Source of the DNA: an uncultured Gammaproteobacteria bacterium
Lineage (GTDB): Bacteria > Patescibacteriota > Microgenomatia > Levybacterales > GWA1-39-11
NCBI GenBank assembly: GCA_964425075.1
Contig: CAYRKM010000001.1
Coordinates: 18,756 to 82,755, forward strand
DNA: 64,000 bases
Direction: 5' to 3'
Shown here in pieces: positions 5,882 to 52,413 of this stretch (the stretch's first letter is position 1; the number at the start of each line of letters is the position of its first letter). A program made the position numbers and the translations under genes. The notes beneath the pieces were generated by a model, which ran no database searches, was not told the origin of the DNA, and worked only from the letters and a program-made list of their open reading frames with translations.

Positions 5882-6547
5882 TTAGGAGAGTTTGCGGTAA
5901 ACGTACGCTGTTGCAATCATTATAACTGGCCAAACAATAAATATCCCAATTCCAAAAGCGATAATCCCCAACAAACAAAGTCCTGCGAATATCAATCCCA
6001 AGAGGAAAAGATTCCATTTGTGACCCTGTGTTAGCTTGCCGCTTGCAGAAATTGCCTCAAGTGGGCCCATTTTTTTATCAACTACAAAATATGAATAAAA
6101 TTGGAATTTAACTGCCCAAATAATTCCAGGAACAACTAAAAGAAGGACCCCCGCAAAAACTATCAACCCATATAAAAGACTTGAAAGAAAATAATTCCAT
6201 GCAAGATTGTAATGTTTAAAAAGATCTTCAATTATAGGTTTTTTCCCATCTATAAATTTAAGAGATATAGCAATAAGCCCAATACTAACCACAATCTGCA
6301 AGATCTTAGCTGCAAGACCTAAAACAAAGCTGAAAGCTGGAAAATTATTTTTTAGCTGATTCTGGAAAATTGAAGGAATAAAATTAACAGCCGCAACAAC
6401 TATGATAACGACCAAAAGAAATTGCCAATTCTTTTTGAATGTCTCCCAAGCGTATACTAACGCCTCTTTTTTTGAAAATGAATTCTTTGCCATATTGATA
6501 AGTTCTAAATGTATTGTCCTCAAAGACAGTATAAATGTCAAGAGCAA
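5882..6547 (-). CDS. polytopic membrane protein, hypothetical
   Basis: 221 aa, about six hydrophobic helices, no catalytic motif recognised. Confidence 0.55.
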   Translation of the reverse strand: MLLTFILSLRTIHLELINMAKNSFSKKEALVYAWETFKKNWQFLLVVIIVVAAVNFIPSIFQNQLKNNFPAFSFVLGLAAKILQIVVSIGLIAISLKFIDGKKPIIEDLFKHYNLAWNYFLSSLLYGLIVFAGVLLLVVPGIIWAVKFQFYSYFVVDKKMGPLEAISASGKLTQGHKWNLFLLGLIFAGLCLLGIIAFGIGIFIVWPVIMIATAYVYRKLS

Positions 6548-45472: not shown

Positions 45473-45563
45473 AGCGAATTATTATAACAAATGATTTAAT
45501 TTCATTTGGGGTGGCTTAGTAAGCTTTGTTTTGGCCTAAATTTACTAAAGGATTAAGATTTTT

Positions 45564-46187
45564 CTATTTTAATATTTCTAGCGTTGAAAGAGTTTTATCT
45601 ACTTCTGTTTGAAACCCAACATTCTGAGGATCATTAACTGATGTCGCGATAACAATCGCATAATTTGATTTCATATCTTTTTGAAGCACATAATAGGTAG
45701 ATTGACCCAAACTACGAATCTTGTAAGTAACACCCGAATAATTATTGAGCATAATATTTTTTGGGGGGGCAATGATTTCTGAAGTTCCATCTGCGGTCAT
45801 CTGCTTAAGATACTCGTCCAACCATTTCTGAAATGTCTTTCCGTTTAAGGAAATTGTTTCAAAAACCATAATTACACCGTCATATATTTCGGTTTGTCCT
45901 TTTTGGGTTGCACCTGTTTTATAAATACGAATATGTTGTTTGTCTTTTGTGTCTAATTTATAATCTGCAGGATAAAGGAAAACATACACTCCTTGAGGAT
46001 CACTATAGCTACTTCCTCCGGCTCTTAAATCACTATTATCAATAGTCGGTTGTGGAGTATTCTCGGCTACCGAGGGAGAAGGAGTATTGTTGGGGTCTAT
46101 AAAGGAATTTTTTATTTTAGGAAAGAAATAAAAAATTCCCAACATAATTATTGCTATCACAATAAACCCTAATTTTGTTATTTTCAT
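45564..46187 (-). CDS. secreted/anchored hypothetical protein
   Basis: 207 aa, N-terminal TM/signal. Confidence 0.5.
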   Translation of the reverse strand: MKITKLGFIVIAIIMLGIFYFFPKIKNSFIDPNNTPSPSVAENTPQPTIDNSDLRAGGSSYSDPQGVYVFLYPADYKLDTKDKQHIRIYKTGATQKGQTEIYDGVIMVFETISLNGKTFQKWLDEYLKQMTADGTSEIIAPPKNIMLNNYSGVTYKIRSLGQSTYYVLQKDMKSNYAIVIATSVNDPQNVGFQTEVDKTLSTLEILK

Positions 46188-46245
46188 AAAGAAAGGATTG
46201 GTATTACCTATAAGTATAAAGGTTTTGTTTTGATGCTGAAAGTTT

Positions 46246-46286
46246 TGGCAGGGCCGGATGGAATCGAACCATCTTCAAAGGTTTTG
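46246..46286 (-). tRNA. 3' exon (positions 35-76, CCA encoded) of a split tRNA-Trp(CCA) gene
   Basis: CAAA-ACCTT-TGAA-GATGG-TTCGATT-CCATC-CGGCCCT-G-CCA; acceptor strand complementary to AGGGCCG in the 5' exon 166 nt upstream. Confidence 0.45.
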
Positions 46287-46302
46287 TCCCAGAAGTATCT
46301 TG

Positions 46303-46373
46303 CAGGGGTATCAGGGCTCGAACCTGAAATGGAGGTTTTGGAGACCTCTGTGATACCATTTCACCATACCCCT
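46303..46373 (-). tRNA. tRNA-Trp (anticodon CCA), intact copy embedded between the two exons of the split copy
   Basis: AGGGGTA-TG-GTGA-AATGGTA-TCAC-A-GAGGT-CTCCAAA-ACCTC-CATT-TCAGG-TTCGAGC-CCTGA-TACCCCT-G. Confidence 0.8.
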
Positions 46374-46452
46374 AAAAATAATGCCTGCTTAGAACTTCGG
46401 GATCCCGTACATCTAAGCAAAACCCTTCAGGTTTTGCAAGATGGTACTGGGA

Positions 46453-46485
46453 GAGACCTCTATTCTACCGGTAAACTACGGCCCT
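46453..46485 (-). tRNA. 5' exon (positions 1-34) of split tRNA-Trp(CCA)
   Basis: AGGGCCG-TA-GTTT-ACCGGTA-GAAT-A-GAGGT-CTC; joined to the 3' exon it reconstitutes anticodon loop CUCCAAA identical to the intact copy. Confidence 0.45.
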
Positions 46486-46546
46486 TTGTGTTATTATCAA
46501 GCTCAATTATATTTCAAAGGGGGATTTAATTCAATTTAAAGGCAAT

Positions 46547-47227
46547 CTAAGTACCCGATGCCGTCATTCTCACATTCATTTCCTTTAATGTATTATCAAA
46601 TGTATCTTTTACTATTTCTTCTGGCAGGTTGGAATTATTGATATTAATCTGTGCGAAAAAATCGTACACTGCCTGAAAATTAAAAGGCCCCATTAATTTT
46701 CTATGTGGAATTACAAGGTCAACCGAAACATACCCGTTTGATTGTGGAGATAAATTAACATAAATACCTTTTCTTGATTGCCTCAATGAAATAGCGCTGG
46801 AGCCAATTTTTTCGATGCTAATTGGCTTTTTCGCCCATTCTTCTTCTGAAAAGAATTCTTTAACCCCAACAATTAATCCATCTACATTTTGATCTGTAAT
46901 AATTTTGGCTGTTATATCTCCATCATTATCGCTGGTCACCCTAAAAACCTCACCACCATTTCTATCCACTACAAAAGTCGTAAAAGTATCACTATCATCA
47001 AAAATTTCCTGTATTTTCAAATCAGAAATTGTCGAACCATCAGGCACAATTCGCTGATCAACACCATTATTTACCAAACTTTCAGAGATTGGAGTTATAT
47101 TATTAGGAGAATTGTTTGGGTCAAAATCGGTATTGATACCTGATATTTTTCTACCTGAATCTGGAAATCTAATAATATTATCTGGTTGAGCTTCATCAGT
47201 CATTTCAAAATCAGTATACCATAGCAT
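46547..47227 (-). CDS. hypothetical protein
   Basis: 226-aa ORF. Confidence 0.5.
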   Translation of the reverse strand: MLWYTDFEMTDEAQPDNIIRFPDSGRKISGINTDFDPNNSPNNITPISESLVNNGVDQRIVPDGSTISDLKIQEIFDDSDTFTTFVVDRNGGEVFRVTSDNDGDITAKIITDQNVDGLIVGVKEFFSEEEWAKKPISIEKIGSSAISLRQSRKGIYVNLSPQSNGYVSVDLVIPHRKLMGPFNFQAVYDFFAQININNSNLPEEIVKDTFDNTLKEMNVRMTASGT

Positions 47228-47254: not shown

Positions 47255-47899
47255 CTAATCCTTAATTTCAAACTCTTCGATGATATTTGAGATTGTTCCA
47301 TGCTCACCTAAGTTGGCGACTATAAGTTTGGTAACCTGAAAATCTATAGTTTCAGTTTCGCCTAATGTTTTCATCGCCCCATTCCTATCTTTCTCGTTTT
47401 TAAGCCTTGTTAGAGTAACATGCGGAACGTAAAGCTCACCATGATAAATTGCTCCCGTCTTCAATACGTTTCGTCGTTCTTTTTCACCTAATTCTTCAAG
47501 TTGTTCTAATGCGGGGGGTGCGATAAGTCCTTCGCGAAGTGGATTTGCCAGTTTTAGAATTTGTCGGTGAAACTCCATAATTTCCTTTGATTTTTTTGCG
47601 TTCCACCAAACAAATCTTCCGGGGCTTATCCAAAAATCTGACATAAAAACGGAAAATTTTTTGCTTTCTTTGGAAAATTTTAGAAGAGTCTTTTTTAAAG
47701 AATCAAGATTTTTATATGGAAAATATCCTTGATAAATAGTTATGTGCGGTCTGAAATTTTTAGTATTAAGCGTAAATTCTGATGCAAATTTCTTAGTCAG
47801 ATTTTCACTTTGCTTAATCGCCTCTTTCTTTACATCGACTGAGGGCAAAATCACAATATTTAAAGCAATTGCTCTATTCTTGTCATTACTTGAAATCAT
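47255..47899 (-). CDS. 2H phosphoesterase superfamily protein (LigT-like 2'-5' RNA ligase/cyclic phosphodiesterase)
   Basis: 214 aa; two HxT/Sx motifs (HITIYQG and HVTLTRL). Confidence 0.65.
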   Translation of the reverse strand: MISSNDKNRAIALNIVILPSVDVKKEAIKQSENLTKKFASEFTLNTKNFRPHITIYQGYFPYKNLDSLKKTLLKFSKESKKFSVFMSDFWISPGRFVWWNAKKSKEIMEFHRQILKLANPLREGLIAPPALEQLEELGEKERRNVLKTGAIYHGELYVPHVTLTRLKNEKDRNGAMKTLGETETIDFQVTKLIVANLGEHGTISNIIEEFEIKD

Positions 47900-51882: not shown

Positions 51883-51967
51883 GCCGAGATGGCGGAGCGG
51901 TCAATCGCAACAGACTGTAAATCTGTCGCCCGTACGGGCTACATAGGTTCAAATCCTATTCTCGGCA
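51883..51967 (+). tRNA. tRNA-Tyr (anticodon GTA) with long variable arm
   Basis: acceptor GCCGAGA/TCTCGGC, anticodon arm ACAGA-CTGTAAA-TCTGT, variable stem GCCCG-TA-CGGGC, T-arm ATAGG-TTCAAAT-CCTAT. Confidence 0.85.
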
Positions 51968-51997
51968 CAAAAATTGCGTAGAAATTTTTGTGAAGAG

Positions 51998-52214
51998 AAC
52001 AAGGTTTTCTTATTCTCGGCACAAAATTGTAGATTTTGGGTTGAGAACAAGGTTTTCTTATTCTTGGCACAAACGAAGCGTAGTGTCCGAGAGCAAGGTT
52101 TTCTTATTCTCGGCACAAAATTGTAGATTTTGGGTTGAGAACAAGGTTTTCTTATTCTTGGCACAAACGAAGCGTAGTGTCCGAGAGCAAGGTTTTCTTA
52201 TTCTCGGCACAAAT
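51998..52214 (+). repeat. tandem array (5 copies) of a 28-nt unit AACAAGGTTTTCTTATTCT(C/T)GGCACAAA derived from the tRNA-Tyr 3' end, with alternating 20-nt spacers
   Basis: copies at 51998, 52046, 52094, 52140, 52188; spacers alternate ATTGTAGATTTTGGGTTGAG and CGAAGCGTAGTGTCCGAGAG (a 96-bp unit repeated ~2.3 times); the unit's last ~17 nt equal the tRNA-Tyr 3' end. Confidence 0.7.
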
Positions 52215-52413
52215 CTTTTCTGTGTTAAACCACAAATACTTTTACTTTCAGACATAAATTTCCCCTATTTGCATCCCATAACACATTTTTTACCTCAAAA
52301 CTGAGTTTTACTCCAGGACTGTGGATGGAGTGTGGACAAGATTTACTATATGACTTCTGTTTTTCTTATGAGATATGCTCTACTTTCTGAAGTCAAAATT
52401 TAGAAAAAGTTAT

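Follow-up and report, generated by a model that had tools for sequence, protein, structure and literature searches.

A complete tRNA-Trp gene nested within the interrupted anticodon of a second tRNA-Trp gene in a Microgenomates-group bacterium

In a 64-kb stretch of DNA (contig CAYRKM010000001.1, positions 18,756 to 82,755; hereafter the window, meaning the whole stretch that was analysed) from a Microgenomates-group Patescibacteria genome, a tRNA-Trp(CCA) gene on the minus strand is interrupted within its anticodon, between C34 and C35, by 166 bp of DNA that itself contains a second, complete tRNA-Trp(CCA) gene. This nested structure, with a tRNA gene in the anticodon of a tRNA gene of the same isotype, is real and unusual; no description of such an arrangement was found in a limited body of literature. 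We consider that it probably arose through a recent break-and-replace event at the DNA level, in which the insertion killed the resident gene whilst supplying a replacement tRNA-Trp.

Architecture of the nested locus

The interrupted (outer) gene comprises a 33-nt 5′ half at 46485-46453 (positions 1-34, ending …GAGGTCTC with C34 of the anticodon) and a 41-nt 3′ half at 46286-46246 (CAAAACCTT…CGGCCCTGCCA; positions 35-73 and an encoded CCA), with the insertion at 46452-46287, all on the minus strand; the two halves directly adjoin each other when relatives are aligned by blastn. A 7-nt CUCCAAA anticodon loop is restored by one junction only, in which C34 is the last base of the 5′ exon and A that of the insert. 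When the 33 and 41 nt pieces were joined and submitted to ARAGORN, they were called as tRNA-Trp(CCA), with 7/7 acceptor stem pairs. A preliminary description of this DNA had assigned the two pieces to one tRNA-Trp(CCA), and had named failure of the concatenated pieces to give a valid cloverleaf score as a refutation; the assignment holds with all its coordinates, and the joined pieces do give a tRNA call. The joined halves are, moreover, identical at 71/71 positions to the uninterrupted tRNA-Trp of a related locus (L133), a gene that scores 60.8 bits against the Rfam tRNA model.

As a control for chance, 127,520 constructs with the same 33+166+41 geometry were taken from both strands across the whole window. 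A tRNA was called at the split locus (in several registers) and otherwise only in two stray instances, one of them approximately 110 nt from the split locus, so that false calls amount to about 1 in 10^5. Logan contigs L001 and L002, assembled independently from different sequencing runs, also contain the identical 359-nt intergenic region; the DNA is represented in the runs SRR14271365 and SRR14271372. The outer gene was not reported in place by Infernal at a relaxed E-value threshold, nor by ARAGORN in intron mode (0-300 nt), a predictor run that the preliminary description had proposed as a check.

The insertion is bounded by imperfect 18-bp inverted repeats, the left arm (TCCCAGTACCATCTTGCA) at 46452-46435 and the right arm (TGCAAGATACTTCTGGGA) at 46304-46287, the latter overlapping the final 2 nt of the inner tRNA. 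The arms are complementary at 15/18 positions, rather than the 14/18 originally counted, and the probability of at least 15/18 complementarity at fixed insert ends is approximately 3e-7. The inner tRNA-Trp(CCA), at 46373-46303, is complete but for an encoded CCA and scores 61.2 bits against the Rfam tRNA model, which bears out the earlier claim of a complete and different tRNA-Trp within the interval. It has approximately 50/71 positions in common with the outer gene; the anticodon stem-loop sequence is common to both.

The insert also holds two hairpins. The first, read directly from the sequence, is at 46437-46417 (GCAAAACC-TGAAG-GGTTTTGC), and because its first 19 nt are similar to the start of a tRNA-Trp 3′ half (CAAAACCT[TT]GAAG[AT]GGTT) it may be a partial duplicate of that start, a homology that is suggestive only; over 10 nt the same region also matches the tRNA-Trp of relatives in reverse complement. 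The second, at 46419-46386, has 17-nt arms (82% complementary) around a GGGATCCC centre, with TTTTT 8 nt after the stem. Both, like the repeat arms and the inner gene, are described on the minus strand. An 11-nt string, ACAAAACCTTT (minus strand), at the junction of insert and 3′ half (46277-46287) is repeated exactly 59 nt downstream at 46218-46228, just past the 3′ end of the outer gene; the repeat could be left over from an earlier event or could be coincidental.

The interrupted gene and its intact relatives

For comparison, species-representative genomes were scanned with a degenerate pattern for the outer 5′ half, yielding 69 loci, and further loci were added by fetching contigs encoding homologues of the neighbouring PAP2 protein; fetched loci are cited by L numbers. 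An uninterrupted tRNA-Trp of the outer type is present in 17 related loci (L116, L133 and 15 others), which are syntenic with the window via the PAP2 gene or a 207-aa downstream gene. The intact genes of L133 and L116 begin with 33 nt that are identical to the outer 5′ half, and the outer 3′ half equals the L133 sequence up to the discriminator base. In L116, the nearest sampled relative with this region (PAP2 79% identical), the same 33-nt 5′ half continues uninterrupted into CA and reads GGTCTCCA. In the 16 intact genes besides that of L133, most of the differences are compensatory changes of the pairs 27:41, 6:65 and 48:62, to which L042 and L118 add a few unpaired substitutions; the encoded CCA is variable among the intact orthologues. 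That the outer gene is the ancestral (resident) tRNA-Trp(CCA) of the genome is well supported by these alignments. The intact syntenic orthologues imply that the window's lineage gained an insertion in a previously normal gene, a presence/absence polymorphism with an intact target in all 17 of these close relatives.

Relics of older tRNA-Trp copies are also present approximately 20-75 nt upstream of the intact tRNA-Trp in L009, L029, L125, L133, L026, L042, L066 and L119. One form, AGGGCCGTAGTTTAG-hairpin-CCAAAATACGCCCTG, is kept in three species with the hairpin maintained; the relic upstream in L133 is AGGGCCGTAGTTTACCGGTA. These 5′ relics could result simply from decay or could represent a leader element put to new use.

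The inner gene and related cassettes

A metagenome scan with the acceptor and D arm of the inner gene returned three relevant contigs (L082, L090 and L092). In L082 a tRNA identical to the inner gene (100%, 74/74) stands alone, whilst L092 and L090 carry tRNA-Trp genes 97% and 94.5% identical to it within cassettes that interrupt the same resident gene as the window insert; at orthologous loci the inner type was found only inside such cassettes. L092 is syntenic with the window (PAP2). In it, the outer-type 5′ half is followed by a 28-nt hairpin after GGTCTC (C34/C35), CAAAACCTT, an 81-aa open reading frame (ORF) with a GIY-YIG catalytic domain (Pfam PF01541, 2e-13) and an inner-type tRNA-Trp, after which a second GGTCTC-hairpin-CAAAACCTT copy runs into the outer 3′ half, the T loop of which has an extra 41-nt insertion. 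L090 has the same cassette design in a more decayed state, with the D arm lost. Judged by sequence comparison, it is well supported that the inner gene is of a foreign type and belongs to a different sequence family from the outer gene. Phage tRNA arrays contain its D-arm type as well, but combined with other acceptor and T arms; a phage origin of the insert was rejected on this difference and because the insert flanks have no viral match.

The GIY-YIG ORF of L092 is one of several. A tblastn search of all fetched DNA with five GIY-YIG ORFs located such ORFs in L042, L059, L090, L092, L118, L125, L127 and L133, always 20-215 nt from a tRNA-Trp 5′ half, and a ninth in L136 that adjoins a tRNA-Leu, such that 9/9 in the fetched loci are beside a tRNA gene. 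The window itself has none (matches only at E > 4). The L090/L092 hairpin can be read as a 26-nt perfect palindrome with CC on each side (GGTCT-CC-palindrome-CC-AAAACC), and the duplicated CC could be the trace of a 2-nt staggered cut; no comparable dinucleotide duplication is present at the window's insert.

Recurrence and decay in other Patescibacteria

Interruption of the tRNA-Trp gene is not confined to the window and these cassettes. Among the 69 genome loci, three are interrupted, namely those of L013 (Kerfeldbacteria), L048 (Moraniibacteriota) and L065, and in each a complete second tRNA-Trp follows the break at a distance of 19-144 nt; both contigs of L065 end inside its inner tRNA. 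Across the interrupted cases found, the intact second tRNA-Trp is always 19-300 nt downstream. Three other contig groups have the break at or beside C34/C35, and a fourth has it at 37/38. In L013 it follows CTC, and a gene for a large serine recombinase (Resolvase, Recombinase and Zn ribbon domains) abuts the inner tRNA-Trp. In L048 it follows CTCCAAT, three to four bases later than CTC, with 16 nt of the outer gene gone and the inner tRNA between 11-nt inverted repeats CCCGCACCTTT and AAAGGTGCGGG. In L065 and L135 the break after CTC is followed by a 29-nt hairpin (TCCACC…GGTGGA), CAAAACCATTTG and a new tRNA-Trp. This second lineage is polymorphic too: the resident tRNA-Trp is intact in L136 and L138 (neighbouring gene 95% identical to that of L135), whilst L137 (93% identical) has the same new tRNA-Trp as L135 and then, after 48 nt, only the last 20 nt of the resident gene.

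Every interrupted tRNA-Trp seen has an intact tRNA-Trp beside it, and older interrupted copies are eroded (L048, L090, L092 and L137), a combination that fits loss of function followed by decay, rather than a spliced gene. On these sequences, the tRNA-Trp gene looks like a recurrent target of selfish DNA.

The T loop (GGTTC/GATTCC), with the motif recognised by the T4 nuclease SegB, is a second break point: L092 has its GC-rich 41-nt hairpin insertion there (minus-oriented, 5906-5948), and the resident remnants of L137 (approximately 2730-2750) and L048 begin at …GATTC. Some inserted stretches open with CCCGC and close with GCGGG (CCCGCCTGATG… in L013; CCCGCACCTTT…AAAGGTGCGGG in L048), and the T-loop insertion of L092 reads CCCGCCTGCAAC…GGCGGG, which hints at a family of GC-rich palindromic insertions in these AT-rich Patescibacteria genomes.

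Probable expression of the nested unit

A promoter-like site (TTGAAT-17-TATAAT, 10/12 consensus match) is present at 46534-46506 on the minus strand, just upstream of the outer 5′ half. A promoter scan found no such site inside the insert and none between the 46534-46506 site and the inner tRNA, and a terminator scan called no intrinsic terminator in the insert. The strong hairpin with a T-tract reported in the preliminary description is present at 46386-46419, but the T-run begins 8 nt past the stem and the scan did not flag it as a terminator.

From its match to the consensus, the 46534-46506 site is probably the promoter of the resident tRNA-Trp, now driving the whole nested unit. Given an insert with neither a promoter-like site nor a canonical terminator, the inner tRNA would most likely be transcribed from this resident promoter, within a precursor of approximately 250 nt. 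RNase P and 3′-end processing enzymes would then release it, leaving the two outer halves as discarded by-products, and the CCA-adding enzyme would finish it, as no CCA is encoded in the inner gene. The inner tRNA-Trp is the presumed functional gene of the locus.

Proposed mechanism and alternative explanations

The outer gene is best explained as dead or dying, with the inner gene taking over under the old promoter. In the mechanism we favour, the tRNA-Trp genes of Microgenomates-group Patescibacteria would be broken repeatedly in or beside the anticodon, and only those repair or insertion products with a working tRNA-Trp would survive. In the window, it is well supported that the 166-bp DNA was inserted exactly between C34 and C35, inactivating the resident gene and bringing with it the complete tRNA-Trp(CCA) of a different sequence family that now does the job; over time, the outer halves would decay into relics like those in relatives. 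The suggestion in the preliminary description that an insertion disrupted one tRNA-Trp and delivered a replacement is supported by the intact resident orthologues, the foreign type of the inner gene and the decay of interrupted copies elsewhere.

The best candidate agents are the small GIY-YIG nucleases that adjoin tRNA-Trp in sister genomes. In L090/L092 one such putative nuclease shares a cassette with a foreign-type tRNA-Trp, in an arrangement that appears homing-like, and the window insert may be an ORF-less relative of a cassette of this type. We infer the insertion enzyme with lower confidence than the event itself, a GIY-YIG-driven homing-like process being the leading candidate for the enzymology. 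The number of steps also merits comment. Positions 17-35 of the insert resemble a second, degenerate start of the 3′ half, and L092 and L135 also show an insertion and then CAAAACC… before their cassettes; a two-step origin is therefore possible, in which a hairpin may have entered at C34/C35 first and the cassette been inserted into the hairpin later, as opposed to a single step.

Several observations weigh against this account. Both outer halves are still perfect (71/71), which could equally mean a very recent event or continuing selection, and it is possible, the view being that of a 64-kb window, that another tRNA-Trp gene is present elsewhere in the genome. There is no nuclease, recombinase or transposase gene in the window, and the GIY-YIG ORFs of the relatives, at 81-87 aa, comprise a catalytic domain only. 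The inner and outer genes share the anticodon stem-loop, so that a nuclease recognising nothing beyond it would cleave the replacement as well. For the 79 nt that make up the left part of the insert, neither the fetched loci nor viral contigs contain a homologue. The 15/18 terminal repeats are unexplained by nuclease cutting and repair, and the combination of inverted repeats with zero target duplication fits neither cut-and-paste transposition, serine or tyrosine recombination nor simple break repair as they stand.

The repeats are the natural starting point for the first alternative, that the insert is a non-autonomous transposon resembling a miniature inverted-repeat transposable element, with a tRNA passenger and a transposase encoded elsewhere. 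The insert is small, its complementary arms are exactly at its ends with the low chance probability given above, and other insertions at or beside C34/C35 are also helix-forming (the 29-nt hairpin of L135 and the 26-nt perfect palindrome of L090/L092). However, the flanks (CTC/ and /CAAA) contain no direct repeat and hence no target-site duplication, no transposase gene is nearby, and the right arm consists in part of the 3′ end and trailer of the inner tRNA itself, which L082 shares. Nor does either the repeat or the 79-nt arm have a second copy in the 64-kb window of the 835-kb genome, the 138 fetched loci or viral contigs, a search for the 18-bp repeat that the preliminary description had suggested. 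Of its proposal of a miniature element with terminal inverted repeats, the repeats therefore stand, whilst neither a target-site duplication nor a second copy was found, and we regard a transposon as unlikely.

The L013 locus suggests a second alternative, in which the insert is the collapsed remnant of an L013-like, recombinase-driven integrative element with its own tRNA-Trp, the body of which was later lost. The serine recombinase gene of L013 directly adjoins the inner tRNA-Trp, with the broken 5′ half a short way upstream; the attP arms of serine recombinases have dyad symmetry and would resemble terminal inverted repeats; and there is archaeal precedent for a 5′ tRNA fragment followed by a recombinase-encoding element and then a full tRNA (PMC3293823). 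Against this, the 2-bp crossover repeat of a serine recombinase was not found (TC on the left versus GA on the right), nor was the 6-8-bp core repeat of a tyrosine recombinase at the junctions, and these missing repeats, which led us to reject the insert as a direct product of either enzyme class, already count against a remnant. In addition, no recombinase gene is present among the window's neighbours, and a very precise internal deletion would be needed to leave just 16 bp at one end. A collapsed element of this kind seems to us distinctly improbable.

It is also conceivable that the outer gene is still functional, the 166 nt being excised as an intron or the two halves operating as a split tRNA that the repeat helix keeps joined, with the inner tRNA derived from the same precursor. 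Both halves are pristine, the repeats as RNA would lengthen the anticodon stem to form a stable stalk (-25.5 kcal/mol, z = -5.8), and shuffled controls fold less well than the complete 240 nt (z = -3.6). A 2H/LigT-like phosphoesterase gene ('2′-5′ RNA ligase'; both HxT motifs, PF13563 4.5e-9) is further located on the same strand two genes upstream, at 47255-47899. None of the known splicing routes is recognisable, however. A group I intron, for which we took as criteria a 5′ exon ending in U (the U.G pair in P1) and an intron ending in G, was rejected, as the exon ends in C and the insert in A and no match to the Intron_gpI covariance model was obtained at E <= 10 in 45500-47200 or at E <= 0.5 in the whole window. 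A bulge-helix-bulge (BHB) intron, which requires at the splice sites a 4-bp helix flanked by two 3-nt bulges, was likewise rejected: in the fold the two junctions lie opposite one another within a 3x4 internal loop at the foot of the repeat helix, without staggered bulges, and the central helix that would be needed (GGUC versus CUGG) pairs at 0/4 positions. The host is moreover bacterial. The exclusion of group I and BHB introns in the preliminary description is accordingly upheld, and its other suggestion, a processed or trans-acting arrangement, is unsupported.

The LigT-like gene was rejected as a splicing partner, as it occurs beside PAP2 in L117 without a nearby tRNA-Trp and is missing in two loci that have an intact tRNA-Trp directly next to PAP2 (L026 and L029); from this distribution we regard it as a coincidental neighbour. 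Taken with the intact neighbour of each interrupted tRNA-Trp found and the decay of the older interrupted copies, splicing of the outer gene at the RNA level is unlikely, and we give very little credence to the outer gene being functional by either route. A chance resemblance or an assembly chimera, in favour of which there is only the failure of tRNA predictors to call the outer gene in place, is already refuted by the 71/71 identity of the joined halves to a real gene, the rate of about one false call in 10^5 and the identical 359 nt in two further independent assemblies.

Returning to break-and-replace, the preferred reading may have a broader form, which we put forward tentatively and would not regard as the likelier outcome: that Patescibacteria harbour an undescribed class of selfish tRNA cassettes, homing into C34/C35 of the single tRNA-Trp gene, destroying it and making the host dependent on the tRNA-Trp they carry. 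Such cassettes would be driven by minimal GIY-YIG nucleases, with continual turnover of tRNA-Trp genes and gene relics as a consequence, and the 166-bp unit would be the smallest member, its nested tRNA gene expressed from the victim's promoter.

The locus offers a bacterial, population-level view of mobile or foreign DNA splitting a tRNA gene in or beside the anticodon, and so bears on the long-debated origin of archaeal split and intron-containing tRNAs. It also points to a route by which selfish DNA could become indispensable, namely by replacing an essential single-copy tRNA gene. If the GIY-YIG link is true, the 81-87-aa proteins would be very small nucleases targeting tRNA genes. There is finally a consequence for annotation, as tRNA finders report the inner gene only and gene callers put a spurious 98-aa ORF over the structure. 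This ORF (99 aa with a TTG start in the window, 46230-46529 on the plus strand) covers the split-tRNA structure from end to end on the opposite strand, was predicted as a gene of 98 aa in L001 and L002, and is almost certainly spurious.

Host and neighbouring genes

The tRNA-Tyr of the window is an 86-nt class II tRNA, from which the host is taken to be bacterial. Two homologues of the neighbouring PAP2 protein carry the source name Candidatus Levybacteria, and several related metagenome-assembled genomes (MAGs) labelled 'uncultured Gammaproteobacteria' share tRNA sequences with Roizmanbacteria MAGs; for the latter reason the Gammaproteobacteria label is treated as unreliable, the lineage being Microgenomates-group Patescibacteria.

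Directly upstream of the split tRNA is an orphan 226-aa ORF (46547-47227, minus strand). It has no family matches and, among 1.8 billion representative proteins, no homologue besides a fragment of itself; with a structure model that is unusable (predicted local distance difference test score, pLDDT, of 39.9), it was rejected as the responsible enzyme. Both this ORF and the LigT-like gene are located between PAP2 and the split tRNA, an interval that varies from 0.1 to 4.4 kb among relatives and is widely variable in content.

Tandem repetition of a different kind is seen directly after the tRNA-Tyr gene (51883-51968), where five tandem units of approximately 47 nt, in two alternating variants with a 94-nt super-period, occupy 51954-52223 on the plus strand. 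Each unit mimics the acceptor/T-arm minihelix and 3′ end of tRNA-Tyr (CCGAGAG-CAAGGTTTTCTTA-TTCTCGG-CACA). L026, L042 and L066 match the same tRNA-Tyr-like units, and a 51-nt duplicate of tRNA-Tyr positions 36-86 is present in L042, L125, L128 and L129. A survey of tRNA fragments beside all tRNAs in the fetched loci was confounded by neighbouring full tRNA genes and was not used.

Comparison with known systems

A bacterial group I intron is known in tRNA-Leu UAA at 34/35. In Patescibacteria, group I introns have been described for tRNA-Asn as well as tRNA-Asp at 35/36 (PMC13011429). The window insert resembles bacterial group I introns in its location in the anticodon loop (34/35), in the phylum of its host and in that the host gene is missed by standard annotation. 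It differs in being too short, in having no group I core and the wrong nucleotides at the splice sites, and in carrying a tRNA gene instead of a ribozyme.

The palindromic elements of Rickettsia are palindromic selfish insertions in genes, tolerated within functional products and present in many copies per genome. They share with the present case the short, helix-forming insertion into a conserved gene, as seen in the 26-29-nt hairpins at C34/C35 in L090, L092 and L135 and in the repeat stalk of the window; the target in the window is, however, inactivated on our reading, and the inserted sequence is single-copy in the data seen.

Integrative elements such as phages and integrative and conjugative elements also target tRNA genes, for which the anticodon loop is a classical crossover region, and also compensate for the damage. 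Classical examples, however, carry the 3′ part only, regenerate a hybrid gene and leave a displaced 3′ fragment with core direct repeats, whereas in the window a whole different tRNA is present, a core repeat is lacking and the resident gene is left as two orphaned halves.

A comparable layout is seen in archaeal cases, in which tRNA genes are disrupted by mobile elements (Caldiarchaeum tRNA-Thr, PMC3293823) or are split and permuted (PMC3218864). The former likewise shows a 5′ tRNA fragment upstream of a complete second copy, with mobile DNA between, in a polymorphic population (PMC3293823), and the idea that mobile DNA splits tRNA genes near the anticodon is common to both (PMC3293823, PMC3218864). 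An archaeal host can rescue split genes by means of its splicing endonuclease, whereas the host of the window is a bacterium; furthermore, the archaeal element is 1.8 kb and encodes a recombinase, whereas the insert here is 166 bp, with both halves immediately around the new gene.

As regards enzymology, a parallel is known in SegB of phage T4, a free-standing GIY-YIG homing endonuclease within a tRNA gene cluster, which cleaves tRNA gene DNA leaving 2-nt 3′ overhangs and spreads along with the surrounding tRNA genes (PMC2330249). SegB differs from the present system in that its cutting is demonstrated, whereas the Patescibacteria ORFs are candidate nucleases; in that it has a DNA-binding part, whereas those ORFs, at 81-87 aa, consist of the catalytic domain only; and in that it reads a T-loop motif, whereas the main break in Patescibacteria is in the anticodon. 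A further difference is that here the incoming tRNA lands within a resident gene of the same isotype, and the window insert lacks a nuclease ORF. Nonetheless, both systems have a GIY-YIG nuclease gene, demonstrated or putative, among tRNA genes, which in the case of SegB cuts the tRNA gene DNA of relatives without it and in Patescibacteria may do so; both show spread, demonstrated or proposed, with neighbouring tRNA genes, precise insertion without target duplication, and presence or absence among close relatives. The L090/L092 cassettes, which combine a GIY-YIG ORF with a tRNA-Trp gene, look SegB-like.

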